NCBI GenBank assembly: GCA_044228405.1
Contig: JBGAUX010000001.1
Location: 21,414-85,413 of the forward strand
Reading direction: 5' to 3'
Source: Candidatus Altimarinota bacterium
Lineage (GTDB): Bacteria; Patescibacteriota; Gracilibacteria; UBA1369; JBGAUX01
DNA: 64,000 nucleotides
A program made the translations under genes and the position numbers. Within the stretch, counting starts at the first letter, position 1; every line of letters begins with the position of its first letter. Under the pieces are notes generated by a model, which made no database searches, was not told the DNA's origin, and saw only the letters and a list, made by a program, of their open reading frames with translations. Of the stretch, positions 6,777 to 33,944 are shown one piece after another.

Positions 6777-7973
6777 CTATGACAGTAAAAAATCCTTAAA
6801 TTGTTTGATTTTTTCAGCAGATTTTTTTACATCATCCAAAGATGGAACAAGTGCAAAGCGAATAAAACCTTTTCCTGGATTTTTTCCTAAAAAGTCAGTG
6901 TCACTAATTAAACTACCTGGAATACCAGCAACAGCAATATCAGCATGGAGCAATTTAGTGGCTATTTCTAAGTCATCAAAGCCTTGTGGTAGTTCTTGCC
7001 ACAAAAACATACAAGCCTCTGGAGCAGACTTGGGAAATCCTAAATACTCAAAAGCTTCCATTAGCACATCTCGTTTTTCTCTGTACTCAACACGCATTTT
7101 AGCAGTGTGCTCGTCGTCCCCCAATGCCGAAATAGCAGCCTCTTGAATAAAATTTGGTGTACCACTATCAATATTGGTTTTCAAATTCTTAAAAGTATTA
7201 ATAACATCTGGGTCTCCACACACAAATCCAGCCCTATAGCCGGTCATATTTGATCTTTTAGATAGCGACTGAAAAACAATCACATTTTCCTTGCCGGCCT
7301 GTAAGGCAGTTGCAGGTCTAATATTTTCATCAAAATAAATGTCAGAATAAGGCTCATCTGAAGCCAAAATTAAATTATTTTTGTGACAAAATTCCAAAGC
7401 TTTTTTGTAAAAATCCACATCAACTTGTTTTCCAGTTGGATTATGCGGGTAGTTCAACCATAAAATTTTAGCTTTATCCAAAATTTCTTGAGGGAAACTT
7501 TCAAAATCAGGTAAAAAATCGTTCTCCTTATAAAGACCATAGTAAAAAGGAATTCCTTCGGCAAAAATCGCACCCGTTTTATATGGAGGGTAGCCAGGAG
7601 TTGGCACTAAAACATAATCTCCAGGGTTTACATATGCTTCGGCAAAGTTAAAAACAGCTTCTTTTGCTCCAATAGTTGAACAAATTTCAGTTTGGGGATC
7701 CACATCTACATCAAAACGACGCTTCATATATTCGCTTACAGCCTTGCGATACTCTGGCATGCCAATATAGCTTGGATAACCCGAAGATTCATGTTTTTTA
7801 ATAGCGCTAACAACTTTTTCTTGAATAAAATCTGGTGTGGCAGTAGTTGGATCGCCAACACCAAAATCAACTACAGGAATGCCTTGTTCGCGCAATTCGG
7901 CAATTTTATCGTTAATAACTTTCATTGGGTAGCTAGGCAAACTTTGTAATCTATTTGAAGGAGGTATTTTCAT
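6777..7973 (-). CDS. dapL: Class I/II PLP aminotransferase, candidate LL-diaminopimelate aminotransferase
   Basis: N-terminus RLQSLPSYPM...VVDFGVGDPTTATP and PLP-lysine motif SLSKRSNMTGYRAGF. The functional call rests largely on its position immediately after lysA in the dap/lys operon. Confidence 0.6.
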   Translation of the reverse strand: MKIPPSNRLQSLPSYPMKVINDKIAELREQGIPVVDFGVGDPTTATPDFIQEKVVSAIKKHESSGYPSYIGMPEYRKAVSEYMKRRFDVDVDPQTEICSTIGAKEAVFNFAEAYVNPGDYVLVPTPGYPPYKTGAIFAEGIPFYYGLYKENDFLPDFESFPQEILDKAKILWLNYPHNPTGKQVDVDFYKKALEFCHKNNLILASDEPYSDIYFDENIRPATALQAGKENVIVFQSLSKRSNMTGYRAGFVCGDPDVINTFKNLKTNIDSGTPNFIQEAAISALGDDEHTAKMRVEYREKRDVLMEAFEYLGFPKSAPEACMFLWQELPQGFDDLEIATKLLHADIAVAGIPGSLISDTDFLGKNPGKGFIRFALVPSLDDVKKSAEKIKQFKDFLLS

Positions 7974-7979
7974 TTTAAA

Positions 7980-9227
7980 TTAGTTAATAGTTAGAGTTGA
8001 TAAAAGGTCGTTAAAGGTTTCGGCGCGACGAATAATTGATAAACTGCCATCTTCCTTTAACAAATATTCAGCATGTTTAAGTTTTCCATTATAGTTGTGA
8101 GCCATAGCATACACATGTCCGCCAGAATTATGAATAACAACAATATCTCCTACTTTTGCTTTCGGTAAAACTCTTTCCTTAGCAAATTGATCATTATTTT
8201 CACATATTGAACCGACCACAGAAACTATTTCGGTTTCTTGTTCATCCGAAATCAATGAAACATAATGATAAGCATCGTAAATTGCAGGTCTGGGATTGTC
8301 GTTTGTACTAGCATCCACGCCAATAAATTTTTTATAAGAATCTTTAATTACTACAACTTTACTCACCAGCCAACCAGCATCAGCAACAATATAACGGCCA
8401 GGTTCCGCCATTAATCTAGGCGCCTTAAGATTGTATTTGGCACATTGTGTATCAAAACTTTCTCTCACACTTTTAGCAATATAATCCATATCTAAACTAG
8501 GCTTTTCGGGATGATAAGGCACACCAAAACCTCCACCCATATTTAAAACTTCAATCTCAATGCCAGTTTCTGCTTTTGTTTGAGCCACAACTTCCAAAAG
8601 TTTGGCAATAATTTCTGCAAAATAATCTTTTTTATCAATTGGTACATTACTACCTGTCATCATATGAATACCAAATTTTTTCACACCAAGTTTTTTAAGT
8701 TCGCTATAAGCTTGAGGCGCTTTTTCAAAGGGAATTCCGTACTTTGCATCGGGCCCCGCAAAAACATTGCTAGCTTCTACTGCATTGCCCATACCAGGAT
8801 TAATTCTTAGTGAAACCATTTCTGGCACACCAATTTCGGTCAACATAGCTATGTTACTAATGTCATCTAAATTTAAAATAAAGCCATTTTCTTTCGCATA
8901 TTTAAGAGTTTGAGCAGGCGTGAAATTTGCCGTAAACATGCCATTTAATCCAAGTTGATTACTCAAAAAAACTTCAAAATCACTTGAGGCATCCATGCCA
9001 AAACCTTCTTCTGCAATGATTTTTAAAAGCACAGAATTGGAATTTGCTTTAATCGCATACAAAGATGAAAAGTCCGGAAAATATTTTTTAAAAGCTCCCG
9101 AAAATCGTCTGCAATTTTCTCTAATTCGCTTTTCACTATAAATGTAAAATGGCGTTGGAAATTGCTTAACGGCTTTAAGTACAGCTTCTTTAGGATAATA
9201 AACCACATCTGGGTTAATATTTGTCAT
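7980..9227 (-). CDS. lysA: Diaminopimelate decarboxylase
   Basis: Motifs YAIKANSN (PLP Lys), GGGFGVPY, EPGRYIVADAG, CENND. The ORF track extends to 9320, but that part overlaps dapA. The ATG at 9227-9225 (MTNINPDV) overlaps the dapA stop by 1 nt (TAATG) and gives a typical 415 aa. Confidence 0.9.
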   Translation of the reverse strand: MTNINPDVVYYPKEAVLKAVKQFPTPFYIYSEKRIRENCRRFSGAFKKYFPDFSSLYAIKANSNSVLLKIIAEEGFGMDASSDFEVFLSNQLGLNGMFTANFTPAQTLKYAKENGFILNLDDISNIAMLTEIGVPEMVSLRINPGMGNAVEASNVFAGPDAKYGIPFEKAPQAYSELKKLGVKKFGIHMMTGSNVPIDKKDYFAEIIAKLLEVVAQTKAETGIEIEVLNMGGGFGVPYHPEKPSLDMDYIAKSVRESFDTQCAKYNLKAPRLMAEPGRYIVADAGWLVSKVVVIKDSYKKFIGVDASTNDNPRPAIYDAYHYVSLISDEQETEIVSVVGSICENNDQFAKERVLPKAKVGDIVVIHNSGGHVYAMAHNYNGKLKHAEYLLKEDGSLSIIRRAETFNDLLSTLTIN

Positions 9228-10111
9228 TATATAATTTGGTAATCTTTCAATAATTGCTCCAGTTTTTGACGATTTTCGGGTCGCATTTCGCAAAGTGGTA
9301 AACGGAAAATTTCCTTGCACTTACCCAACATAGCCATAGCTGTTTTAATTGGCAAAGGATTTGTTTCAATAAAAATGTCGTTAAAAAGACGCAGATTTTT
9401 ATAATGAATTAAACGGGCCTCTGCAAGATTTTGCTCTTTAATCAATTGTAGCATTTGCACTATTTGTTGAGGCACCAAATGTGAAGCCACAGAAATAACG
9501 CCATCTCCACCCAAGCAACTTAGCGCAAAAGTTAGCGAGTCATCACCGCACAAAACAGTAAAATCGTCCGGAGTATTTTGAATAACCTCCATCATTTGGC
9601 TAATATTGCCCGAAGCCTCTTTTACACCAACTATATTGGGCAACTTAGCAAGGCGCACCAAAGTTTCAGTTGAAATATTTACGCCTGTACGCCCTTGAAT
9701 ATTATAAACGATGATTGGTATGCCAATTTTGCTTAGCTCTTCGTAGTGACGATATATGCCCTCTTGTGTAGGTTTATTGTAGTATGGGCAAACTACCAAT
9801 GCGCCATCTGCCCCGTTTGTGTGAGCATCGGTAGTCAATTCAACGGCTTCAGCCAACGAATTACTGCCAGTTCCAGCAATAACAGGTACGCGGCCAGCCA
9901 CTTGTTGAACCACAAATTTCACAATTTCCTTGTTTTCGCTATGAGAAACCGTAGGCGATTCGCCAGTTGTTCCACAAGGCACTAAGCCGTTTATACCAGC
10001 CGATATTTGATCTTCTATAATTTTACCCAAGGCCTCATAGTCCACACTTTTTCCGTCGCTGGTAAATGGTGTAATGATTGCAGTTAAAACTCCAGTAAAT
10101 TTTTTAGACAT
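9227..10111 (-). CDS. dapA: 4-hydroxy-tetrahydrodipicolinate synthase
   Basis: Motifs TAIITPF, GLVPCGTTGESPTVS and the catalytic-Lys region VGVKEASGN. Length is 294 aa. Confidence 0.95.
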   Translation of the reverse strand: MSKKFTGVLTAIITPFTSDGKSVDYEALGKIIEDQISAGINGLVPCGTTGESPTVSHSENKEIVKFVVQQVAGRVPVIAGTGSNSLAEAVELTTDAHTNGADGALVVCPYYNKPTQEGIYRHYEELSKIGIPIIVYNIQGRTGVNISTETLVRLAKLPNIVGVKEASGNISQMMEVIQNTPDDFTVLCGDDSLTFALSCLGGDGVISVASHLVPQQIVQMLQLIKEQNLAEARLIHYKNLRLFNDIFIETNPLPIKTAMAMLGKCKEIFRLPLCEMRPENRQKLEQLLKDYQII

Positions 10112-10113
10112 AT

Positions 10114-10881
10114 TTATTGATTGAGGTGATTAATTATTTTTGAAAATATTTTAGCAAAATCATAAAACCCAGTTTCATCTTTTAACCACTCACTAGCCAT
10201 AATTGCGCCTATTGCAAAGCCCTCTCTACTACGCGCGGTGTGACTAATTTCAATAGTATCAAACGCAGAGTCGAAAAAAACTTTGTGCGTTCCAGGCACA
10301 TAACCACCGCGCGTAGAGGTTACATGTAACTCGTTTTCGGCAATTGGCCTATCCAAAGTTTGGGTAATCACTTTTTCCTTTTTCGGATAATTGGCAAGAA
10401 TTTTATGTGCGGTAGTTAGCGCAGTGCCCGAAGGGCTGTCCTTTTTTCTTTTGTGATGAAACTCATGCATAAAAACATCATAATCTTTTTGATTAGCCAA
10501 CAAGCTAGAAGCTTGCTCTAGAACTTGCCAAAACAAGTTTACTCCCACAGAAAAATTAGAACCCCACATAAAACCAATACCAGCTTTTTCAACTATTTTC
10601 CTAGCCTTCTCCAAATGCTCATACCAGCCAGTTGTTGCCATAACTAAAGGTTTTTGCAACCTGCAAGCCTGCTTAATATTTTCCAATACTGTTTCGGGAG
10701 ACGAAAAATCAATTAACACATCAAATTTATCAGCGTCTTTTAAACTTAAATGCGCCAAATTTTTATAGTCTGCATTTTCGTAAGCATGATCAATAATTAC
10801 ACCAATTTCATGACCTCTATTTACGGCATTTTCTGCAACTAGTTCACCCATAACACCATGTCCTACAATTCCAATTTTCAT
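10114..10881 (-). CDS. dapB: 4-hydroxy-tetrahydrodipicolinate reductase
   Basis: N-terminal Rossmann motif MKIGIVGHGVMG and the signature EFHHKRKKDSPSGTA. Confidence 0.9.
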   Translation of the reverse strand: MKIGIVGHGVMGELVAENAVNRGHEIGVIIDHAYENADYKNLAHLSLKDADKFDVLIDFSSPETVLENIKQACRLQKPLVMATTGWYEHLEKARKIVEKAGIGFMWGSNFSVGVNLFWQVLEQASSLLANQKDYDVFMHEFHHKRKKDSPSGTALTTAHKILANYPKKEKVITQTLDRPIAENELHVTSTRGGYVPGTHKVFFDSAFDTIEISHTARSREGFAIGAIMASEWLKDETGFYDFAKIFSKIINHLNQ

Positions 10882-10890
10882 AGCAAAGAA

Positions 10891-11892
10891 TTAAATAAAT
10901 AATTGAGCAATCTGCACAGCATTTAAAGCCGCGCCCTTTAATAACTGATCTCCACAGATAAAAAACTCCAATCCGTTTTCACCAAATACTAAATTTTGTC
11001 TTATTCTGCCAACCTCAACATCAAACTCAGTAGAAGCATTCAGCGGCATGGGATAAACATTATGAGCAGGATTATCCACCAATTTTACACCAGGTGCTTG
11101 GCTTAAAATCCTCATAGCATCATCTCTGTTTATCGGCTTTTCTGTTTCAATAACAATACTTTCGCTATGCGCTCTCAAAGTGGGAATTCGCACCGCTGTA
11201 CAAGAAATTTTAATCGAATTGTCGTTAAATATTTTTTGCGTTTCCCAGGTTACTTTCATTTCTTCTTTCGTATAAAAATTGTCCTGAAATTTGTCAATTT
11301 GCGGAATTAAATTAAAAGGGATGGGATGAACAAAAACATGATTTTCGGCCTCTTCACCGTCTAAAACTCTTTGAGTTTCCTCCACTAATTCTTGCATGCC
11401 TTCTGCACCGGCGCCCGAAGTTGCCTGATAAGTGCTTACAATAACTTTTTTTAATCCAAACTCCTTATGTAATGGATATAGCACAACAGCCGCAATTGCT
11501 GTTGTACAATTAGGATTTGCAATGATTCCTTGATGATTTTTCGCCTCGTGAGCATTCACTTCTGGCACAATTAAAGGCACATCTTCGTCGTATCTAAAAG
11601 CAGAAGAATTATCGATCATCAAGCAATTTGAAGCCACCACTCTATCTTTCCACTCCTTACTAAAGTCGCCACTTACCGCAAAAAGCGCAATATCACTCTC
11701 TTCAAAAATCTTTTCACTAATAGCTTCAATAGTAATGTCACCAAAAGGAGTTGAAACAACTTTGCCAACAGATCTTTCCGACGCAACTAAACGAAGACGC
11801 TCAACAGGAAAATTTAGCTGATGCAAGCAGTTAATCATCTCCATACCCACAGCTCCTGTAGCACCCACTATAACAATATTTTTTGCAGACAT
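10891..11892 (-). CDS. asd: Aspartate-semialdehyde dehydrogenase
   Basis: Motifs IVGATGAVG, active-site IANPNCTT, and STYQATSGAG. Confidence 0.95.
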   Translation of the reverse strand: MSAKNIVIVGATGAVGMEMINCLHQLNFPVERLRLVASERSVGKVVSTPFGDITIEAISEKIFEESDIALFAVSGDFSKEWKDRVVASNCLMIDNSSAFRYDEDVPLIVPEVNAHEAKNHQGIIANPNCTTAIAAVVLYPLHKEFGLKKVIVSTYQATSGAGAEGMQELVEETQRVLDGEEAENHVFVHPIPFNLIPQIDKFQDNFYTKEEMKVTWETQKIFNDNSIKISCTAVRIPTLRAHSESIVIETEKPINRDDAMRILSQAPGVKLVDNPAHNVYPMPLNASTEFDVEVGRIRQNLVFGENGLEFFICGDQLLKGAALNAVQIAQLFI

Positions 11893-11909
11893 AATAATAA
11901 ATTAAATTT

Positions 11910-13247
11910 TTAAAACAGCTCTTTGTGTAGAGCGCGAGTAATTTGTAAACAGTCTTTTTCGTCTACAATAAGGGTTAAATTGATGTTTGAATACCCAAAT
12001 GAAATCATGTGAATCGTAAATTTTGAAATTACATGAAAAACTTTTGATAAAAATCCAGCATCACTGCACATATTTGTGCCCACCAAGCACACCTTCGCTT
12101 GGCCAGAAGTTACATTCACAGTAGAAAAAGCACTTAACTCTTGTAGAACGCTTTTAGGAATCGCACCATTTACACTAATAGAAATAGTGACTTCTGAAGT
12201 GGTTATAACATCTATAGAAACTCCGTGTTTACTAAAAATTGAAGACACCCGATTAACAAAACCAAATTCATCCAACATATTATCGGAGCAAATATAAACA
12301 ACATTAACACCTTTAGTAATTGTCACCCCTTTTAAGCCATTTTTTTGAGTTTTATTTATCACCGTACCTTTGGCCAAAGGGTTAAAAGTGTTCTTAACCA
12401 CTACATCAATATTTTCTTTAACAGCCGGATGTATGGTTTTAGGATGAAGAACTTTTGCTCCCGAATAAGCCAGTTCCGCCGCTTCTTGAAAAGAAATTTG
12501 TTGCCATAATTTAGTGTTTTCCACATCTCTAGGGTTGGCAGTTAAAATTCCATCCACATCAGTCCATATTTCTACACTTTTTGCGCCAAGCAAAATGCCT
12601 GCAATAGAAGCCGAATAATCCGACCCTCCACGTCCCAAAGTGGTAGTATTCCCATCTTTGTCGGCACCTATATAACCTGTTAGTACAGGCACACCACCAG
12701 CTTGTAAAAAAGGGATAATCTTGCGTTTATACGAAGTTTTGCTTGTCTTAAAATCAACATTAGCCGATCCAAAATCACTATCTGTGCGCAAAATTTCTCG
12801 CGTATCAAATCGCTCCGCTTTCACCTTCATTGAGTCAAAAACAAAAACCAAAAGATAGCTGGAAAGTCTTTCTCCAAAAGAACTTAAATTGTCTAAACTC
12901 CTCGGTGAAAGCTCTTTTAACATTGCAATTCCCTGCAGCAAAAGCTCAATTTCTACAAATAGAGGCTCCATGTTTTTAGCCCAAAAAGTTTTCACTTTAG
13001 GCTGGACGCCAAAGCCCAACAACAATTCTTCATGTTTTTTCCTAATCGTTAAAATGCTTTTTTCAACCTTCGCAGTATGACCTTTTAAGGCATCTTGGGC
13101 ACTATTTATAAAAGAATCAGTTACGCCACTCATGGCCGAAACCACTACTACAGGCTTATTTTTAAGATTCTGCTTAACTATATTCGCTACGTTTTTAATG
13201 CTTTCTCGGCTTCCCATAGAAGTCCCTCCAAATTTCATTACTATCAT
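11910..13247 (-). CDS. lysC: Aspartate kinase with C-terminal ACT domains
   Basis: Motifs MKFGGTSMG, GRGGSDYSA and AKVLHPKT. The C-terminal third looks like ACT domains. Confidence 0.9.
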   Translation of the reverse strand: MIVMKFGGTSMGSRESIKNVANIVKQNLKNKPVVVVSAMSGVTDSFINSAQDALKGHTAKVEKSILTIRKKHEELLLGFGVQPKVKTFWAKNMEPLFVEIELLLQGIAMLKELSPRSLDNLSSFGERLSSYLLVFVFDSMKVKAERFDTREILRTDSDFGSANVDFKTSKTSYKRKIIPFLQAGGVPVLTGYIGADKDGNTTTLGRGGSDYSASIAGILLGAKSVEIWTDVDGILTANPRDVENTKLWQQISFQEAAELAYSGAKVLHPKTIHPAVKENIDVVVKNTFNPLAKGTVINKTQKNGLKGVTITKGVNVVYICSDNMLDEFGFVNRVSSIFSKHGVSIDVITTSEVTISISVNGAIPKSVLQELSAFSTVNVTSGQAKVCLVGTNMCSDAGFLSKVFHVISKFTIHMISFGYSNINLTLIVDEKDCLQITRALHKELF

Positions 13248-13261
13248 ATATACAAGTTAAT

Positions 13262-13338
13262 AAACAAAAACTCCCCGTAAGTGCGGAGAGTGTAGGTTTT
13301 TCTAGCGTCTAACAAAAACTACCTCTCCGCTTGGGGAG
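13262..13338 (-). terminator. Long imperfect hairpin (stem 13271-13338) followed by a U-tract on the minus strand, 15 nt upstream of the lysC start; intrinsic terminator or attenuator
   Basis: The minus-strand RNA reads CUCCCCAAGCGGAGAGGUAG...CUACACUCUCCGCACUUACGGGGAG followed by UUUUUGUUU. The outer pair is CUCCCC/GGGGAG, and the inner pairs are GCGGAGAG/CUCUCCGC and GUAG/CUAC. Confidence 0.55.
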
Positions 13339-13397
13339 CTTGCTTGGCAGCCTTCTTAGAATTGATATTAAAAACCATAATCGAAAAAATTTACTTT

Positions 13398-13425
13398 ATT
13401 GTAATTTATCCAATTTGTTTGTCAA
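13398..13425 (-). promoter_or_regulatory. Candidate sigma70-type promoter TTGACA-16-TACAAT reading toward lysC
   Basis: On the minus strand, TTGACA is the complement of 13420-13425 and TACAAT is the complement of 13398-13403, with a 16-nt spacer. Hexamer matches in AT-rich DNA can arise by chance. Confidence 0.4.
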
Positions 13426-13430
13426 ACAAA

Positions 13431-14753
13431 TTAAGAAGCTAAATAGCTTTCTACAGCTTGCGACAATCTGGCATAAGTGTCTGTGCGGCGTGCTTCGTCA
13501 CGGTCTAAAGTGGTTAATCTAAAGCCGTAATATGGGCTAAAAAAGCCACTTGCCGGCACTACACAAATTCCTGTTGATGCTAACAAATAGTATGTAAACC
13601 GCTTATCCAAAGGGAAATTTGGCTTATTAACTTCATTTTCTATGTATGCACGCGCTTTTTCATTAGCAATTGGCAAGGTTTGATTTTCGTTTAATACACC
13701 TTCTTCAAAAAGAGGCATCATATAAAACGCACCCTGTGTAGGATTCACTTTTAAGCCTTTAGTTTTACTCAAAACACCAGCAATGTGAGACGCATTTTTA
13801 GCTAATTCTGCATTATATTTTTTGCTCCATTCGTCAAAATCTGGATGATCATAAATTTTAGGAACAATAAATTGAGCCATACTCACTGCACAAACCTCAA
13901 GCAACACGCGTTTTTTTACAGACTCGCAATAATTCAAATATTCTTCGTCTAATTGAGTATTATGAAATTCAAGCCAACCACCTCTGCCACCAGGCCACGG
14001 AACATCTTTCGAAGTACCTCGCATTACAATTAAAGGTACGCGATTATGCGCAATTTCAGTAATTTGATCACAAGGTTCACCGCTTAAAATCATTCTAAAA
14101 TAAACCTCGTCAGAAATAATCATTAGTTTATATTTTTCAGCCAACTGCACTATCGCCTCCAAAGTTTCAGCACTATAAACCGCTCCGGTTGGGTTATTTG
14201 GGTTAATTACCAAAATACCAACAACACCGGGATTAGCCTTAATTTGCTCTTCCATATGCGCAATATCAGGTTGCCAAGCATTATTTGGGTCCAGTTTATA
14301 AGTGATTGGATCAGCCCCTGCAGCAAAAGATTCCATTGATGCATGAGTTGGATAAGAAGGTGTAGGTTGAAGAATGCGAGACCCTTTTGGCAGCATATGG
14401 TATAGGGCGGAAATTGCCGCACCCAAGCCGTTAGTAAACAACACATATTCGTAATCCAAATTTGAAGATGGAGAAAATTTCTTTGAGTAGTCAGTTATCC
14501 ATTTTCGAGTTTCTGGTAAGCCACGAGAGTGCGAGTAACCAAAAACAGCATCACCCTGTTTATTAGTTTCTTCAACAATTAAGTCCTTTAAAAACTGAGG
14601 CACAGGCCAACCTTTAGGCACTGGGTCACCAATATTTTCTCCCACAAATTTAAAATCAGGATCAAGCTCTTTAAGTTTTTGAGCAACATCAACAATTTCG
14701 CGGATACCATATTTCATTAAAGAAACTTGGGGATTAAATAACTGAGTGCGCAT
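13431..14753 (-). CDS. PLP-dependent aminotransferase, class I/II (AlaA-like)
   Basis: 440 aa. It has a SKDVPWPGGRGGW PLP-lysine region and INPNNPTG. Overall it resembles alanine/glutamate-pyruvate type transaminases. Confidence 0.8.
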   Translation of the reverse strand: MRTQLFNPQVSLMKYGIREIVDVAQKLKELDPDFKFVGENIGDPVPKGWPVPQFLKDLIVEETNKQGDAVFGYSHSRGLPETRKWITDYSKKFSPSSNLDYEYVLFTNGLGAAISALYHMLPKGSRILQPTPSYPTHASMESFAAGADPITYKLDPNNAWQPDIAHMEEQIKANPGVVGILVINPNNPTGAVYSAETLEAIVQLAEKYKLMIISDEVYFRMILSGEPCDQITEIAHNRVPLIVMRGTSKDVPWPGGRGGWLEFHNTQLDEEYLNYCESVKKRVLLEVCAVSMAQFIVPKIYDHPDFDEWSKKYNAELAKNASHIAGVLSKTKGLKVNPTQGAFYMMPLFEEGVLNENQTLPIANEKARAYIENEVNKPNFPLDKRFTYYLLASTGICVVPASGFFSPYYGFRLTTLDRDEARRTDTYARLSQAVESYLAS

Positions 14754-14762
14754 AAAATTTGG

Positions 14763-17114
14763 TTAGTTGGATTTAAGAAATTCTTTTTTGATTAGTCGAC
14801 CTCCACAAAAGCGCAGTACTAAGGCCAAAGCCTCTTCAAAGGCTTGTTGTACATATTCATCATCACTTTGAGAATTGCCATCAACCTGCAGTAATAAATG
14901 AGTAGTCGAATCTGTAATTTTAGTTAACAAGCTGTCTCGGTGATTAAAATCACGAGCTATCACCGTATCATTTTTATCGCTGTAAATAAGTTCACCCTCA
15001 TCAAGTATTTTTTCTTTTTCATCTGCCATGTCGAGAAATTTTTCACCTTTATTTGCAAACTTTAAAGCGACAGGTAAAGCCAATTTAGACATATCAAAAG
15101 CTCCAAAGGGCAACTGATATTTAATGGAAATTAAATTGTATATATCTACTAAAGTATTCACATTATAAAGGTCCTTCCCATTGGCAATGCGATCAATTAG
15201 GGCTACAGAGCTAGGTTTTCTTTTGCTCGGGTCAACACCAAAAGCCTTGTACATTGCTTTAAATTCCGCAGAAATTGGTGAATTCTTCTTTAAATCTTCA
15301 GCATCAATTTCAGCCAAAATTTCCTGCTTAATTTTTTCTAATTCAGCATCATTTTTAACAATTTTAACATCTTCAATTTCGGCCCACATTACTTTTATAG
15401 CGGGAAATTTTTCTAAAACATCGGCTTTAATTTCACATAAATCACCTTTCACATCTTCAATTACAACTTTTTCCCTTTCAGGTAAATTGGCAACTTCGGT
15501 AAATCTATCAATAACAAACTTTTGATCCAACGCATCCAAAAACCAACCAGCTTGAGGACCGGAATCTTTGCCTATTAAAGCGGCATAAATGGCCATAAAA
15601 CCTTCTCGAGCTTGTAATGTTGAAGCTTTTCTTAGTTCATGAATTTTGCCGTGTAACTCCTCACCACTTAGATTTTGACTAGTCAAAACTTGAGCAATTT
15701 CATTTAAAAAATTCTTTTGCTCTGATGATAAATCGTAGGCGCAATCAGGAATTTCTTCATGTACAGCAAATTTATAGGATTCAGGTGCATACTCGGTAAG
15801 CCAAAGTTTTACATAGTGAAGGCGTTTTTCGAGCTCGGCTTTGTCGGCCTCTGTTAAGGCAGAACCCTTAAGTTTTTCCACTTCCGCTTCAATATTTAAA
15901 TGAGGCATTTGCACCAAAAAGACTAGCCTCGAAAAACGCGGCCTATAAACATCTTTAAGGTTTTGGGTAGTCAACTGTGAAAAGTGAAATGCCCTTTGAA
16001 AATCAGGAATAATATTATCAACAAGTTCAAAATAATGGTCTGCACACTCATCATAACGGTCAAATAATCTCGGAATTGTATCTCCTTCCGGGTTGAATTC
16101 AATTGGTTGCAGAGGTTTATTTCGTATCATCAAAAACCTCATTAATTCAGCGGGTAGTATGCGATTTATTGCTCTAGCGCTCGCACCTTCTCCTTTTGAA
16201 GAACTCATTTTTGCGCCACCCAAAAGAAAAAATTCGTAAGCTAAGTTGTATGGAACCGAAGTTTTTAAAACTTCAGAACAAATTTTTTCACCAACATCGT
16301 GCGAACCTCCTGCTGCGCAATGATCTTTGCCAGCACCTTCAATGTCAACTTGGTAACCGGCCCATTTTACCGGCCATTCAACTTTCCATGGCAGTTTTGC
16401 CTTACCTTTAAAGGGTGAAATTTTACCGGTATTACCGCATCCTGTAGCCCAAGTTACCATATTTGGCATACAAGTATAGCTCACCTCTTTTCCGTCCCAA
16501 TCTGTCACTTTTGTTGTACCAACCTTGCCACAATTTTCACAAATAACCTGACAAGGATGCCAATCTGCGTCTTTAATAGACCCACTCACATCTTTATAAA
16601 TTTTACGAATATCCTCTTCGTGGTTCATAACAATTTCAATCCATTTATCATACATCCCTTCGTAATACCTTTCACTAGCCAAGCTATATTCAACTTTAAA
16701 ACCCAGCCCATCAATAACATTTGCAAATTCATTGCCAAAATATTCAGCAAAGTTTTTCGGCTCACCATATTTTTTTGCTAAAATTTCAGTAGATTCTTTT
16801 TCAAAAAGTTTGTCGTTACTTGCATTCGGCACAGGCACATTCATCAGCGGTTTGCCCATATGCTCCTCAAAAACAGCTTTATCCAAATAAATTGGCAGGC
16901 CATCCATAGGGTCAAAATCATTGAATTCAAAAATGAATTTTGAATCATAACCCTTTTCTTGAAGCGCTTGATTTACCATGGCATGCAAAACCACACCTCT
17001 TAAAGAGCCAACATGTACGCGCCCAGAAAGTGTTTTTTCATCACGCAAAATAAAACTTTTTTTCCCAGGGAAAAGCTTTTCAATTTCTTCTACTACCTCA
17101 TCAACCCAAAACAT
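14763..17114 (-). CDS. lysK: Lysine--tRNA ligase, class I, fused to a C-terminal B3/4-like domain
   Basis: Class I LysRS motifs: SGRVHVGSLRG (HIGH-like) and GGAKMSSSKG (KMSKS-like). At 783 aa it is long for a class I LysRS. The last ~225 aa (14766-15440) carry B3_4-family motifs: NTLVDIYNLISIKYQLPFGAFD and GELIYSDKNDTVIARDFNHRDS. Confidence 0.9.
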   Translation of the reverse strand: MFWVDEVVEEIEKLFPGKKSFILRDEKTLSGRVHVGSLRGVVLHAMVNQALQEKGYDSKFIFEFNDFDPMDGLPIYLDKAVFEEHMGKPLMNVPVPNASNDKLFEKESTEILAKKYGEPKNFAEYFGNEFANVIDGLGFKVEYSLASERYYEGMYDKWIEIVMNHEEDIRKIYKDVSGSIKDADWHPCQVICENCGKVGTTKVTDWDGKEVSYTCMPNMVTWATGCGNTGKISPFKGKAKLPWKVEWPVKWAGYQVDIEGAGKDHCAAGGSHDVGEKICSEVLKTSVPYNLAYEFFLLGGAKMSSSKGEGASARAINRILPAELMRFLMIRNKPLQPIEFNPEGDTIPRLFDRYDECADHYFELVDNIIPDFQRAFHFSQLTTQNLKDVYRPRFSRLVFLVQMPHLNIEAEVEKLKGSALTEADKAELEKRLHYVKLWLTEYAPESYKFAVHEEIPDCAYDLSSEQKNFLNEIAQVLTSQNLSGEELHGKIHELRKASTLQAREGFMAIYAALIGKDSGPQAGWFLDALDQKFVIDRFTEVANLPEREKVVIEDVKGDLCEIKADVLEKFPAIKVMWAEIEDVKIVKNDAELEKIKQEILAEIDAEDLKKNSPISAEFKAMYKAFGVDPSKRKPSSVALIDRIANGKDLYNVNTLVDIYNLISIKYQLPFGAFDMSKLALPVALKFANKGEKFLDMADEKEKILDEGELIYSDKNDTVIARDFNHRDSLLTKITDSTTHLLLQVDGNSQSDDEYVQQAFEEALALVLRFCGGRLIKKEFLKSN

Positions 17115-28612: not shown

Positions 28613-31123
28613 ATGAAGTTTATTGTAGATAAAGAAATTTTACAGCATTATCCAAGTTTGCACTTGGGTGCAATTATTCTAAAAAACTTTGATAACTCTA
28701 AGCGAATTTCGGTTATAGAAAGCCTTTTGCGGGGTGCTAATGAAGAGAAAATTAGAGATTTTTCTGGTAAAAAAATTGAGGAAGATCCTCGGGTGAAGGT
28801 GTGGAAAAAGACATACAAAAGCTTTGATTTTGATGACAAAAATCATTTTTCAAATTTAGAAGATTTACTAAAAAAAGCTATTGGTGGAAAGGGAAAAGCA
28901 TCTGGCAATAGCCTGGTGGATATTTGTAATTTAATTGCTTTAAAGTACTGTATCCCAATTCAAGCGCATGATATTGATGAGCTTTCTGGTAATTTAAGGC
29001 TTACTTACGCAGCAGGAAGCGAATACTTTGTTGAAGAAGGTAAAAAAGCCATCAAAGTTAAAAATGGAGAAGTAGTATATAGAGACGATGCTGGAGTGCT
29101 GAGTAGAGGCTGGAATTGGCAATTTTCTGCTCGGGACAAAATCTCAACAAATACAAATAACGCCTTAGTTTTATTTGAAGATATGGGCGTTTTGGGCACT
29201 AAAGGGCTTGAAGACGCAATCAAAGACTTTATTTATTTCTTCAAAAAATATGAAGGAATTGATTGTAGCTACAGTGTGATTTCTTCGCACACGCAAGAGC
29301 TAGATTTGGGTGTAGAAGGTGTGTACGGCATTACCGACGACGAAAGCGGAGAGTTGCATATATTTGAAAAAAAGAGTATTGGCAAAGTAGAGAAATTAGC
29401 TAAGCCCAAAGCCATGGATTACGAAACATATATAGATAAAATTAGTAAGCTTTTACAGAAAACTATTAAAAAGAGTTTTTCCGAAGTTGCCGATAGTAAT
29501 TTTGTGGTGGAAGAAAGCAAAGATGTTCAACATGGTGATTATGCGAGCAATTTGGCGCTTCAATTAGGGCAAAAATTAAAGTCTAATCCACGCGAGACAG
29601 CAGAAAAAATTGTTGAGGCCATAAAAAAACCAACTTGGATTGAGAAAATTGAAGTAGCAGGTCCAGGTTTTATCAATTTCTTTGTGTCTAAAAAAGCATT
29701 AACCAGTGTGCTGGAAACGATCATTGCGCACCCTGTAGAATACGGCAACTGCAAGGGCAAAACTAGCGAAATGCTGGTTGAATTTGCTCATCCAAATACG
29801 CATAAGGCCTTTCATATTGGGCATTTGCGAAATATAACTTTGGGAGAATCTTTAGTTAGATTGCTGGAATCGCAAGGGGTCAAGGTTCACAGAGCCAATT
29901 ACCAAGGTGATGTTGGTCCGCATGTGGCAAAATGTCTTTGGGGTTATATGAAAAGCGAGGTGCCAAAAAACCTAGATACAAATCAAGCCAAGGCCGAATT
30001 TTTAGGTAAAGTTTATGCAATTGGGGCCAAAGCCTACGAAGCTTCTGAGGATGCAAAAAAGGAAATTGATGAAATTAATAAACAAATTTACCAAGAGGAC
30101 GGAGATATAATGCCACTCTGGCGCGAAACTAGGCAGTGGAGTTTGGATTATTTTGATGAAATTTATCAAAGACTGGGGTCACATTTTGATAGATTATATT
30201 TTGAAAGTGAAGTGTGGAAATCTGGTTTTGAGTTGGTTCAAAACGGCTTAAAGAAGGGAGTTTTTGAGGAATCAAAAGGTGCAATTATCTACGATGGAGA
30301 AAAACACAATCTGCATAAAAGAGTTTTTATAACCTCTCAAGGAAATCTAACCTACGAAGGTAAGGAAGTTGGCTTGGCGCAAATGGAAAACACAGAGTTT
30401 AAATTTGATAAAAAAATTCATGTAGTGGCACACGAGCAATCTGCCTATTTTCAGGTGGTGTTTAAGGCTATAGAACAGTTAATGCCCGAGCTTGAAGGTC
30501 GCCAAGAACATGTGCCTTACGGCATGGTTAAATTGCCTTCCGGTAAAATGTCATCTCGAACAGGTGATGTAATAACAGCAGAATCTTTGCTAGAGGAAGC
30601 CAAAAGCAAGGTTGCAGTTTACGCAGAAAGAATAGAAGGAAGTCAGGAAGAGAAAGATGCTATTATCGAAAAAGTAGCTTTGGGTGCTGTTAAATTCACA
30701 ATGTTAAACGCCACTAGCGCTAGTGACATTGTTTTTGAACTTGAAAAAGTTACACAGTTAGAAGGCGCAACTGGCCCTTATTTGCAATATGCATACGCCA
30801 GAATTCAATCAATAATCAAAAAAGTTAATGCCAGTGCAGACGCAGATTACGATCAATTTAACGACTTAGATTGGCTTCTTATAAGGAAAATGTTGCATTT
30901 CCCAGAAATGGTTACTCGCTCTGCAAACGATCTTTCTCCTCATCATTTAGCTAGATATTTAATTGAAATTGCCGGTCAGTTTTCGGGCTGGTACGATAAA
31001 AATTCAGTTTTAAATACAGAAGATGGCTTGCAACAGGCGCGTTTAGACTTAGTTGTAGCTTTGGCGAGCATCATTAAAAAAGGCCTCAATTTAATGGGAA
31101 TAGAAGTACCGGATAAAATGTAG
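28613..31123 (+). CDS. argS: Arginine--tRNA ligase fused to an N-terminal B3/4-like domain
   Basis: ArgRS core from about residue 270: Add-1 domain (GDYASNLALQL, AGPGFINFF), HIGH motif (HPNTHKAFHIGHLRN), GKMSSRTG, and a DALR anticodon-binding domain at the C-terminus. Residues 1-225 (28613-29287) are paralogous to the LysRS C-terminal module: SLVDICNLIALKYCIPIQAHD and GEVVYRDDAGVLSRGWNWQFS. Confidence 0.9.
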   Translation: MKFIVDKEILQHYPSLHLGAIILKNFDNSKRISVIESLLRGANEEKIRDFSGKKIEEDPRVKVWKKTYKSFDFDDKNHFSNLEDLLKKAIGGKGKASGNSLVDICNLIALKYCIPIQAHDIDELSGNLRLTYAAGSEYFVEEGKKAIKVKNGEVVYRDDAGVLSRGWNWQFSARDKISTNTNNALVLFEDMGVLGTKGLEDAIKDFIYFFKKYEGIDCSYSVISSHTQELDLGVEGVYGITDDESGELHIFEKKSIGKVEKLAKPKAMDYETYIDKISKLLQKTIKKSFSEVADSNFVVEESKDVQHGDYASNLALQLGQKLKSNPRETAEKIVEAIKKPTWIEKIEVAGPGFINFFVSKKALTSVLETIIAHPVEYGNCKGKTSEMLVEFAHPNTHKAFHIGHLRNITLGESLVRLLESQGVKVHRANYQGDVGPHVAKCLWGYMKSEVPKNLDTNQAKAEFLGKVYAIGAKAYEASEDAKKEIDEINKQIYQEDGDIMPLWRETRQWSLDYFDEIYQRLGSHFDRLYFESEVWKSGFELVQNGLKKGVFEESKGAIIYDGEKHNLHKRVFITSQGNLTYEGKEVGLAQMENTEFKFDKKIHVVAHEQSAYFQVVFKAIEQLMPELEGRQEHVPYGMVKLPSGKMSSRTGDVITAESLLEEAKSKVAVYAERIEGSQEEKDAIIEKVALGAVKFTMLNATSASDIVFELEKVTQLEGATGPYLQYAYARIQSIIKKVNASADADYDQFNDLDWLLIRKMLHFPEMVTRSANDLSPHHLARYLIEIAGQFSGWYDKNSVLNTEDGLQQARLDLVVALASIIKKGLNLMGIEVPDKM

Positions 31124-31203: not shown

Positions 31204-31800
31204 ATGGATATTAAAAGTATGCCTAGTTGGACCAAATTTGCAGCAGTTGTGGTAGTGATTGCGTTGTGGGTTATGGGTGTTTACAACGGCTTAGTAACTA
31301 TGCGTACACAAATCGACGCAAACTGGGCTCAAGTAGAAGTTCAATATCAAAGAAGAGCTGATTTGATTCCTCAGTTGGTTTCTACCGTTCAAGGAGCGGC
31401 AAATTTCGAACAAGGCACTTTGGTTGCTGTAACCGAGGCGCGAACTCAATGGTTAAACACAAAAAATGATCCTAATGCTTCATTAGATTCGCAAATTCAA
31501 TCTGCCAATAATTTTGATAGCGCTTTATCTCGATTATTAGTTACAGTTGAGTCGTATCCTCAATTAACAGCGACAGAAACATTCAAAACATTACAAGATC
31601 AGCTTGAAGGTACAGAAAACAGAGTTGCTGTAGCCAGAAAAGACTTCAACGAAACAGTTACACCTTACAATGTTAAAACTCAAAGATTCCCTGGAAACAT
31701 AGTTGCAAAACTATTTGGATTTGATAAATACCCATTCTTTGAATCTGCCGCAGGTTCTGAAAATGCACCAGAAGTGAAATTCGATTTCAACAATAAATAA
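31204..31800 (+). CDS. lemA: LemA family protein
   Basis: N-terminal TM helix. NGLVTMRTQIDANWAQVEVQYQRRADLIPQLV is the LemA signature region. Confidence 0.9.
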   Translation: MDIKSMPSWTKFAAVVVVIALWVMGVYNGLVTMRTQIDANWAQVEVQYQRRADLIPQLVSTVQGAANFEQGTLVAVTEARTQWLNTKNDPNASLDSQIQSANNFDSALSRLLVTVESYPQLTATETFKTLQDQLEGTENRVAVARKDFNETVTPYNVKTQRFPGNIVAKLFGFDKYPFFESAAGSENAPEVKFDFNNK

Positions 31801-32684
31801 TGCTGAAGCGGTTAATAATTACAAACTTAGTGGGGTTGGCAATGATATTGCTAGCCCCATTGACAATGGCCGCTTTACAGCTGCCAGATGCGCCTATTGG
31901 CAACACTTATGTGTCAGATTTTGCCGGAATTTTAAGTGACGAAACCGAGCAAAGTTTAAACAGCCGATTAGCGCAATTTGAAACCGATAAAACAACCGAA
32001 ATAGCGGTTGTAACCGTGGACAACTTGCAAGACTATAATATTGAAGAATACGGCATAGAGCTTGCTCGTAAATGGGGGATAGGGCAAAAAGATACTGACA
32101 ATGGCGTATTGCTCCTTGTGGCTCCTAATGAGCGAGAAGTTAGGATTGAGGTGGGATATGGACTAGAAGGGCCTCTGCCAGACGGTAAAGCCTCCAGAAT
32201 TATTCAGGAAATAATTTTACCTCAGTTTAAAGCTGGCGATTACGATTTAGGTGTAGTAAGCGGAGTCGATGCAATTATATCTGCTGTGGAAGGGGAAGAA
32301 TTTAGCGTACCACCTGTAGAAACAAATGACGTAGAAGGCTGGATAGGAGCTTTAATAATACTACTGCCATTTTTTTGGTTTATAATTAGCTGGTTTTCCG
32401 AAAGCAAAGCTTGGTGGGCAGGAGGGATTTTTGGAGGAGTTATCGGCTTTTTACTCGCATCCACTGGCGGTATATTGGTGGGTGCACTTTTAGGGTTAGC
32501 CACAGATTTTGTACTTTCAAAATACTTCTTTGGTAAATTAGTAAGTAAAGGTGGCGGCAAAGGCGGTTCCGGCTTTGGTGGGGGATTTTTCGGCGGAGGC
32601 GGAGGCTTTGGCGGAGGTTCAAGCGGAGGCGGAGGCTTTGGTGGCGGCAGCTTCGGCGGCGGAGGCGCCAGCGGGAAATGGTAG
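31800..32684 (+). CDS. TPM domain (YgcG-like) protein with TM helices and Gly-rich tail
   Basis: Signal/TM segment, then the TPM core (YVSDFAGILSDETEQ...EIAVVTV...GVLLLVAPNEREVRIEVGYGLEG). C-terminal GGGFGGG repeats. It is paired with lemA by a 1-nt overlap, which is the usual arrangement. Confidence 0.85.
   Translation: MLKRLIITNLVGLAMILLAPLTMAALQLPDAPIGNTYVSDFAGILSDETEQSLNSRLAQFETDKTTEIAVVTVDNLQDYNIEEYGIELARKWGIGQKDTDNGVLLLVAPNEREVRIEVGYGLEGPLPDGKASRIIQEIILPQFKAGDYDLGVVSGVDAIISAVEGEEFSVPPVETNDVEGWIGALIILLPFFWFIISWFSESKAWWAGGIFGGVIGFLLASTGGILVGALLGLATDFVLSKYFFGKLVSKGGGKGGSGFGGGFFGGGGGFGGGSSGGGGFGGGSFGGGGASGKW
32551..32684 (+). repeat. Low-complexity GGN-codon tandem repeats encoding the Gly-rich tail of the TPM protein
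   Basis: Repeated ggcggaggcggaggctttgg units are visible in the sequence. The region lies inside coding sequence. Confidence 0.6.
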
Positions 32685-33655: not shown

Positions 33656-33745
33656 TGGCGGAGAGACAGGGATTCGAACCCTGGAGACCCTCGCGGGCCT
33701 AACGGTTTTCAAGACCGTCGCATTCGACCGCTCTGCCATCTCTCC
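33656..33745 (-). tRNA. tRNA-Ser (anticodon TGA), CCA encoded
   Basis: Hand-folded cloverleaf. Acceptor GGAGAGA/TCTCTCC with discriminator G and CCA. Anticodon stem ACGGT/ACCGT with loop CTTGAAA. Long variable arm. T-arm GGGTTCGAATCCC. Confidence 0.9.
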
Positions 33746-33851: not shown

Positions 33852-33944
33852 GGAGAGATACCCAAGAGGCTGAAGGGGCGGGATTGCTAATCCTGTAGGT
33901 CGGAGTAATCCGGCGCGAGGGTTCGAATCCCTCTCTCTCCGCCA
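33852..33944 (+). tRNA. tRNA-Ser (anticodon GCT), CCA encoded
   Basis: Acceptor GGAGAGA/TCTCTCC with G and CCA. Anticodon stem CGGGA/TCCTG with loop TTGCTAA. Long variable arm. T-arm GGGTTCGAATCCC. Confidence 0.9.

Follow-up and report, generated by a model that had tools for sequence, protein, structure and literature searches.

In a 64-kb stretch of the genome of a Candidatus Altimarinota bacterium (contig JBGAUX010000001.1; hereafter the window), two aminoacyl-tRNA synthetases carry an extra domain of the B3_4 family, one at the N-terminus of an arginyl-tRNA synthetase (ArgRS) and the other at the C-terminus of a class I lysyl-tRNA synthetase (LysRS). By sequence comparison and structural modelling, each of these modules is a full-length CtdA-family protein that has become joined to its host by gene fusion, with a linker as the tether. 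We propose, with a probability of roughly 0.55, that the modules serve as tethered post-transfer editing domains, which in this window would have a changed specificity.

The stand-alone deacylase CtdA, which removes canavanine, a toxic mimic of arginine, from tRNA(Arg), was first reported in 2023; until then, neither an editing domain of ArgRS nor any factor proofreading tRNA(Arg) in trans was known (Hauth et al. 2023, PMC10018355). Papers from 2025 present it as a single-domain enzyme (Maldonado et al. 2025, PMC12449066; 10.1101/2024.11.30.626143), and structures are available from Pseudomonas canavaninivorans (PDB 9f7e) and Salmonella enterica (PDB 9mkl). The window copies depart from this picture of a single-domain, free-standing, trans-acting protein, as both are fused in frame to a synthetase.

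Two synthetases with a complete CtdA-family module

The ArgRS gene occupies 28613..31123 (+) as a single unbroken reading frame of 836 aa, with the B3_4 module at its N-terminus. It scores 418 bits against TIGR00456 argS over residues 278-836 (cutoff 262), which identifies it as an arginine--tRNA ligase. Its LysRS partner, a 783-aa class I enzyme encoded at 14763..17114 (-), ends in a B3_4 module of 225 aa and scores 328 bits against TIGR00467 lysS_arch over residues 1-539 (cutoff 148), as expected of a class I lysine--tRNA ligase. The parts of the two proteins are as follows.

28613..29311 (+): complete CtdA-family module, ArgRS residues 1-233 (Pfam B3_4 at residues 85-186, E 5.7e-18; end-to-end profile match; phmmer against the PDB; AlphaFold2 and Foldseek)
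29312..29437 (+): linker, ArgRS residues 234-275 (no Pfam domain match; alignment with the ortholog P0294)
29438..31123 (+): ArgRS core with stop codon (Pfam, TIGR00456, motifs), made up of Arg_tRNA_synt_N or Add-1 (Pfam, residues 276-358), the catalytic tRNA-synt_1d (Pfam, residues 368-709, with HIGH and KMSS motifs read in the translation) and the anticodon-binding DALR_1 (Pfam, residues 724-836)
15480..17114 (-): class I LysRS core, residues 1 to about 545 (Pfam, TIGR00467; relatives of about 528 aa stop here), made up of tRNA-synt_1f (Pfam, residues 2-376, E 3e-86) and Anticodon_2 (Pfam, residues 463-539)
15441..15479 (-): short linker, LysRS residues 546-558 (the stretch left between the core match and the profile match; read through by the independent fragment P0389)
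14763..15440 (-): complete CtdA-family module with stop codon, LysRS residues 559-783 (Pfam B3_4 at residues 621-771, E 7.6e-25; profile match; PDB match 9mkl; AlphaFold2 and Foldseek)

Both modules belong to Pfam PF03483 (B3_4), and CtdA is the top sequence match in the PDB for each, establishing homology to the characterised CtdA proteins. With phmmer, the ArgRS module matches 9f7e at E 3.7e-16 and 9mkl at 2.2e-15, whereas the best phenylalanyl-tRNA synthetase (PheRS) beta chain reaches about 0.3; the corresponding values for the LysRS module are 2.5e-8 (9mkl), 4.7e-8 (9f7e) and 0.002. AlphaFold2 models built on alignments of free-standing homologs have a mean predicted local distance difference test score (pLDDT) of 93.9 for the ArgRS module and 93.1 for the LysRS module. 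In Foldseek these models superpose on CtdA (9f7e and 9mkl) with template modelling (TM) scores of 0.84-0.86 and root-mean-square deviations of 2.6-2.9 over 225-231 columns, the ArgRS module reaching TM 0.86 against 9f7e. The superposition takes in the CtdA-specific helical insert, which sets CtdA apart from PheRS B3/B4, so that the modelled fold is that of CtdA over its full length. Against PheRS beta chains the scores fall to TM 0.5-0.63 at 10-16% identity.

The initial annotation, made from the sequence alone, had called the modules B3/4-like. A B3/4 domain of the PheRS type is ruled out: the hosts are ArgRS and LysRS, and PheRS chains rank below CtdA in both sequence and structure (TM 0.85 for CtdA versus about 0.55 for PheRS). 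The pheT_bact model gives only 29-42 bits on the window proteins (cutoff 403). The same annotation gave the ArgRS module as residues 1-225. It does precede a normal core, but the profile extends it to residue 233, ending near nucleotide 29311.

A profile made from free-standing homologs of about 234 aa runs end to end through ArgRS 1-233 (E 4e-74) and LysRS 559-783 (E 1.5e-60), and therefore the fused unit is a whole small protein rather than a fragment of one. Compared directly by BLASTP, the two modules are 31% identical across 130 residues (E 5e-15). Three peptide pairs that had been aligned by eye occur at the places given for them and all fall inside this alignment, so the similarity first suspected between the modules holds both pairwise and through the shared family profile. 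No third copy of the module is present within the 64-kb window.

The modules had further been described as paralogs fused to two unrelated class I synthetases. They are indeed homologous modules of B3/4 fold at opposite termini, but they are not close paralogs from a duplication within the lineage. The ArgRS module is closest to that of another fusion, P0003 (39% identity, E 2e-56), and the LysRS module to a free-standing protein, P0090 (36%, E 6e-45). Nor are they neighbours in a neighbour-joining tree of modules; this tree and that of the ArgRS cores are deep and poorly supported, and they serve to exclude close sister modules without giving a number of fusion events. Because each module has nearer relatives elsewhere and the two stand apart in the tree, independent capture is more likely, on sequence grounds, than duplication within this genome. 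As for the hosts, ArgRS and class I LysRS share the class I Rossmann fold and are thus not unrelated.

A fusion of this kind could be an artefact, either of adjacent genes merged by an assembly or sequencing error or of a separate small gene with its own start, and an in-frame methionine, Met268, does lie near the canonical ArgRS start. This explanation is effectively refuted. Both reading frames are unbroken, and no Shine-Dalgarno-like sequence lies upstream of Met268. Proteins identical to the window ArgRS and LysRS are present in NCBI, from a contig of 89,212 bp, and a 99% variant of the ArgRS comes from another sample (P0002). An ortholog with 74% identity from a further sample, P0294, has the same architecture and exactly the same length of 836 aa; at both loci ArgRS is flanked on one side by a CNNM/CorC gene and on the opposite side by genes for LemA and a TPM-domain protein. 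For LysRS, the independent NCBI fragment P0389 crosses the junction between core and module at 98% identity (six substitutions). The ArgRS fusion also recurs in about 75 independent clusters drawn from NCBI, JGI, ENA and Logan assemblies. Each fusion is thus one gene rather than two, as first proposed. The conserved Met268, which lies within the linker, was probably the ancestral start of ArgRS.

The module is also maintained. As synonymous differences between the window and P0294 are saturated (pS of about 0.8), which precludes dN/dS, selection was compared through the proportion of nonsynonymous differences (pN) between domains. This is 0.18 for the module, 0.145 for the core, 0.19 for DALR and 0.15 for Add-1. 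Because its value resembles those of DALR and Add-1, the ArgRS module is, by this measure, under purifying selection like the essential domains.

Recurrence of the fusion on arginyl- and lysyl-tRNA synthetases

To follow the spread of the module, ArgRS residues 1-360 were used as the query of a HMMER scan covering 1.84 billion representative proteins; the matches were then typed by domain, and a profile search with 32 full-length fusions was added. The 1-360 query favours ArgRS but introduces no bias between LysRS and other synthetases. Two other searches were unsuited to a census of architectures: the ArgRS module alone gave one match in a word-index search, and a profile of 27 modules retrieved almost exclusively free-standing proteins. 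The following architectures were found.

ArgRS, module at the N-terminus: about 75 distinct clusters
ArgRS, two tandem modules at the N-terminus: P0020, 1124 aa
Class I LysRS, module at the C-terminus: the window protein and P0021
Class I LysRS, module at the N-terminus: P0046
Class II LysRS (above the TIGR00499 cutoff), module at the N-terminus: P0039 and P0076
Class II LysRS (above the TIGR00499 cutoff), module at the C-terminus: P0065 and P0114
Tyrosyl-tRNA synthetase (TyrRS), module at the N-terminus: P0120, with a histidine at pocket position 118
AlaXM-like editing protein, module at the N-terminus: P0078
GNAT acetyltransferase, module at the C-terminus: P0107

Among the best 150 matches, LysRS thus appears in no fewer than four distinct fusion architectures, spread over two unrelated enzyme classes, against one TyrRS and no other synthetase apart from ArgRS. 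This distribution is strong evidence that the function of the module is tied to the charging of long basic amino acids. That the pairing with basic-amino-acid synthetases is no matter of chance, as first suggested, is supported by the same pattern: separate fusions have placed the module on ArgRS and on either terminus of both LysRS classes.

The module-ArgRS clusters come mostly from bacteria of the candidate phyla radiation. Named hosts are Candidatus Dojkabacteria, Peregrinibacteria, the Microgenomates group and one Nitrospirota bin. The tree of ArgRS cores intersperses enzymes that carry the module with enzymes that lack it, which points to repeated gain or loss of the module on ArgRS, although the tree is weakly supported. 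The window core itself is nearest to unfused enzymes of Microgenomates/Levyibacteria, at about 45-48% identity, and this suggests that the window derives from the candidate phyla radiation. Eight loci retrieved from GTDB representatives with ArgRS peptide patterns (L001-L008) were all from Methanofastidiosa or 'Thermococci' archaea, with an unfused ArgRS 35-38% identical to the core. The start of the ArgRS-core match lies between residues 260 and 407 in homologs, and at 530 in one, so the length of the linker varies widely. Some fusions of 792-801 aa (P0304, P0299) have no detectable Add-1 domain (Arg_tRNA_synt_N) in their precomputed Pfam lists; the module may have taken the place of Add-1 there, unless this domain has simply diverged past detection.

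The LysRS fusion is much rarer than that of ArgRS. Among 39 JGI metagenome loci of related class I LysRS (43-55% identity, about 528 aa), none has the module in the open reading frame or in the 6 kb searched. The gene neighbourhoods of two other fused ArgRS genes show no common context and hold no canavanine or guanidine genes, and Rfam detects no riboswitch near the ArgRS or LysRS gene.

Public databases already contain the fusion proteins and list precomputed Pfam domains for them. Named ArgRS fusions are annotated merely as arginine--tRNA ligase, and free-standing copies of the module as phenylalanine--tRNA ligase beta subunit-related protein. In the open full-text literature, subscription journals lying outside this coverage, we found no account of an ArgRS or LysRS joined to a CtdA or B3/4 module, and the CtdA papers mention no such fusion (PMC10018355; PMC12449066, apart from its supplementary tables; 10.1101/2024.11.30.626143). 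The earlier view of the fusion as undescribed biology needs correction in that the ArgRS fusion is widespread in public data, although no characterising paper was found.

Pocket residues and the case for editing in cis

Mutagenesis of CtdA provides a guide to which residues matter. Y104F, N105D, E118Q and E191V each abolish hydrolysis in vitro (10.1101/2024.11.30.626143), and in vivo N105A, G116H, G116W, Q173G and C166G are inactive whereas C166A and C166S are active (PMC12449066). Glu118 and Glu191, at the bottom of the pocket, have been proposed to hold the guanidinium group. We mapped these positions onto the window modules by profile alignment.

Position 104: CtdA Y, ArgRS module C, LysRS module Y
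Position 105: CtdA N, ArgRS module N, LysRS module N
Position 116: CtdA G, ArgRS module Q, LysRS module G
Position 118: CtdA E, ArgRS module H, LysRS module F
Position 166: CtdA C, ArgRS module S, LysRS module A
Position 169: CtdA W, ArgRS module W, LysRS module F
Position 171: CtdA W, ArgRS module W, LysRS module H
Position 173: CtdA Q, ArgRS module F, LysRS module D
Position 191: CtdA E, ArgRS module E, LysRS module D

Across the ArgRS fusions as a whole, Tyr104, Asn105, Glu118 and an acidic residue at 191 (E/D) are kept in 62 of 78 modules, and the pocket signature N-G-E-C/T-E/Q in 58 of the 78. The residue states of these modules span the same range as those of the characterised CtdAs and of the free-standing family. 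Because most keep the essential and pocket residues, the fused family overall is most naturally read as an active CtdA-like deacylase. In support of such an activity, canavanyl-tRNA(Arg) is the substrate that CtdA is known to hydrolyse, acting in trans (PMC10018355, PMC12449066).

The window modules are unusual members of this group. Neither has the complete CtdA signature of required residues (Y104, N105, E118, E191) and pocket residues (G116, C166, Q/E173), and among about 300 modules compared, the pocket signature of the window ArgRS occurs otherwise only in P0002 and P0294. Both window modules do retain the catalytic Asn105 and an acidic residue at position 191 deep in the pocket, together with basic residues at the pocket entrance (Arg167, Arg176 and Lys178 in ArgRS; Arg87, Arg167, Arg172 and Lys178 in LysRS). 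Histidine, tyrosine or phenylalanine at position 118 and cysteine at 104 are also seen in some stand-alone members, and His118 in the TyrRS fusion as well. Since the same states occur in stand-alone proteins, those of the window lie within what the family tolerates and do not amount to decay. Diversification of specificity has been proposed for the 'CtdA-2' clade (PMC12449066), and by analogy the changes in the window pockets fit such a process.

Several observations weigh against an editing role for the window copies. Y104C, G116Q and E118H in the ArgRS module replace CtdA residues, as do E118F and the exchange of two tryptophans for Phe169 and His171 in the LysRS module. At the same positions, E118Q and Y104F (10.1101/2024.11.30.626143) and G116H and G116W (PMC12449066) inactivate CtdA. 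Of 19 pocket positions, 14 are conserved between the window and P0294, which is no better than the 69% of the module as a whole. Further, most fused homologs match the family profile with a higher score than either window module.

Canavanine editing, one of the functions suggested at the outset, is a divided case. It is the known activity of the nearest characterised relatives, the CtdA proteins (PMC10018355). In most module-ArgRS fusions the pocket is intact, and their probable target is tRNA(Arg) carrying canavanine or another basic analogue like it. For the window modules, canavanine is an unlikely substrate, because residues whose mutation inactivates CtdA are replaced in them. If they are hydrolytic, they most likely have a different specificity.

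Catalysis, action in cis and choice of substrate are what we infer here, and the cycle would run as follows. The synthetase core would charge tRNA(Arg) or tRNA(Lys), and the aminoacylated 3' CCA end would swing, or pass, into the pocket of the tethered module. There the ester bond would be hydrolysed when the amino acid is a near-cognate analogue, while the cognate product would be released to EF-Tu. This would be post-transfer editing in cis, as carried out by PheRS B3/B4, the INS domain of ProRS and the editing domain of AlaRS, and the tether would raise the local concentration of deacylase where mischarged tRNA is released. The ArgRS linker, with about 42 residues, and the LysRS linker, with about 13, may act as flexible tethers, since linker length is highly variable among homologs, as expected of such an element. 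As context rather than evidence, ArgRS and class I LysRS need bound tRNA for amino acid activation, and post-transfer hydrolysis would therefore be the obvious route of correction.

It is possible instead that the window modules are catalytically dead descendants of an editing domain, retained as appendages for binding or handling tRNA that raise tRNA affinity or hold on to charged tRNA, much as other tRNA-binding domains appended to synthetases do. The substitutions at positions 104, 116 and 118 strike residues that are individually required in CtdA, the basic patch at the pocket entrance is partly kept, and a module under purifying selection whose pocket is no more conserved than the rest is what such a role could leave behind. 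However, Asn105 and the acidic residue at 191 are retained, the same substitutions at 104 and 118 occur in free-standing members that are presumably functional, and the closest relatives of the ArgRS module, such as P0003, have intact pockets. A role in tRNA binding alone is also not known for the CtdA family. Taken together, we regard a dead module as unlikely, if still a serious competitor.

The other functional alternative, that the two modules pair as in CtdA homodimers and so link ArgRS and LysRS in a small multi-synthetase complex, strikes us as highly improbable. S. enterica CtdA is dimeric (PMC12449066), and both modules are found in one genome on exposed termini. Against this, P. canavaninivorans CtdA is monomeric (10.1101/2024.11.30.626143), and the modules, at 31% identity, are not sister sequences. 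Moreover, the ArgRS module would have no LysRS partner in most lineages, because the ArgRS fusion is common while close relatives of the LysRS lack the module.

Returning to tethered editing, it is tempting to speculate on a broader picture, which we put forward tentatively and hold to be somewhat doubtful as a whole. CtdA-like deacylases may constitute a mobile cassette for proofreading, acquired time and again, at either terminus, by ArgRS and by both of the structurally unrelated LysRS classes. The fusions would then be the first natural ArgRS and LysRS enzymes to edit in cis. In the window, the cassettes would have been re-tuned to new non-cognate substrates, so that the charging of both arginine and lysine would be proofread. 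If this were true, natural antimetabolites of arginine and lysine would be a widespread selective pressure on bacteria of the candidate phyla radiation.

Relation to known editing systems and gene surroundings

CtdA is the closest known system. The modules share its family and its fold over about 230 aa, including the helical insert; Asn105 and an acidic residue at 191 are kept in both window copies, the R-x-W-N-W region is kept in the ArgRS copy, and there is a functional link to tRNA(Arg). They differ in being covalently attached, to the N-terminus of ArgRS and the C-terminus of a class I LysRS, whereas CtdA is free-standing and acts in trans. Both lack Glu118, and the ArgRS copy also lacks Tyr104, Gly116, Cys166 and Gln173. 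No connection of CtdA with LysRS and tRNA(Lys) has been reported.

The B3/B4 domain of the PheRS beta subunit, which hydrolyses Tyr- and m-Tyr-tRNA(Phe) in cis, is a precedent for the same fold as a cis-editing domain within a synthetase. It shares PF03483, the basic fold and an asparagine (N105 of CtdA corresponds to N254 of E. coli PheT) with the modules, but has other insertions and deletions and other pocket residues. It is also embedded among B1, B2 and B5 of a heterotetramer, unlike the window modules, which are terminal add-ons. The pairs formed by ProRS INS and YbaK/ProXp, AlaRS and AlaX, and ThrRS N2 and ThrRS-ed follow the same logic, with one deacylase fold found both acting in trans and fused to a synthetase, although the folds of these ProRS, AlaRS and ThrRS editing domains are unrelated to that of the CtdA module.

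To our knowledge, a fused post-transfer editing domain has not been described for ArgRS or LysRS, both of which are usually listed as having none. A built-in CtdA-type domain, if true, would extend cis-editing to these two enzymes and would be a second, independent use of the B3/B4 fold as a fused editing domain. The fusions also offer natural variants for studying how the pocket selects its substrate, among them intact pockets, pockets with His118 or Phe118, an ArgRS with two modules, and fusions to TyrRS and AlaX. At the level of annotation, they correct the labelling of the fused proteins as plain arginine--tRNA ligases and of the free-standing ones as 'PheRS beta subunit-related'.

The gene for the LysRS with its module leads a tight, co-directional run of lysine-biosynthesis genes at 6777-17114 (-), with 9 nt between the LysRS stop and the following ATG.

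13431-14753 (-): aminotransferase
11910-13247 (-): aspartate kinase with ACT domains
10891-11892 (-): Asd
10114-10881 (-): DapB
9227-10111 (-): DapA
7980-9320 (-): LysA-type decarboxylase, given as the longest open reading frame with a GTG start at 9320
6777-7973 (-): second aminotransferase

As drawn, the decarboxylase frame shares about 94 nt with the end of dapA, and its true start probably lies further downstream. Co-transcription of a lysine synthetase with a full diaminopimelate pathway would be unusual for a genome of the candidate-phyla-radiation type and may bear on the lysine-like intermediates that the module meets.

Downstream of ArgRS lie the two genes named above as common to the window and the P0294 locus (L009), and the order CNNM-ArgRS-LemA-TPM is kept in that 74% ortholog locus. 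The RNA genes detected in the window are limited to two divergent tRNA-Ser genes, about 100 nt apart, and a large bacterial alpha-2-macroglobulin-like protein is encoded towards its end.

31204-31800 (+): LemA
31800-32684 (+): TPM_phosphatase-domain protein with a long C-terminal tail rich in Gly, Phe and Ser
33656-33745 (-) and 33852-33944 (+): tRNA-Ser pair, anticodons UGA and GCU
58405-63981 (-): alpha-2-macroglobulin-like protein of 1858 aa, with MG2, bMG3, bMG6, A2M_BRD, A2M, TED and bMG10 domains

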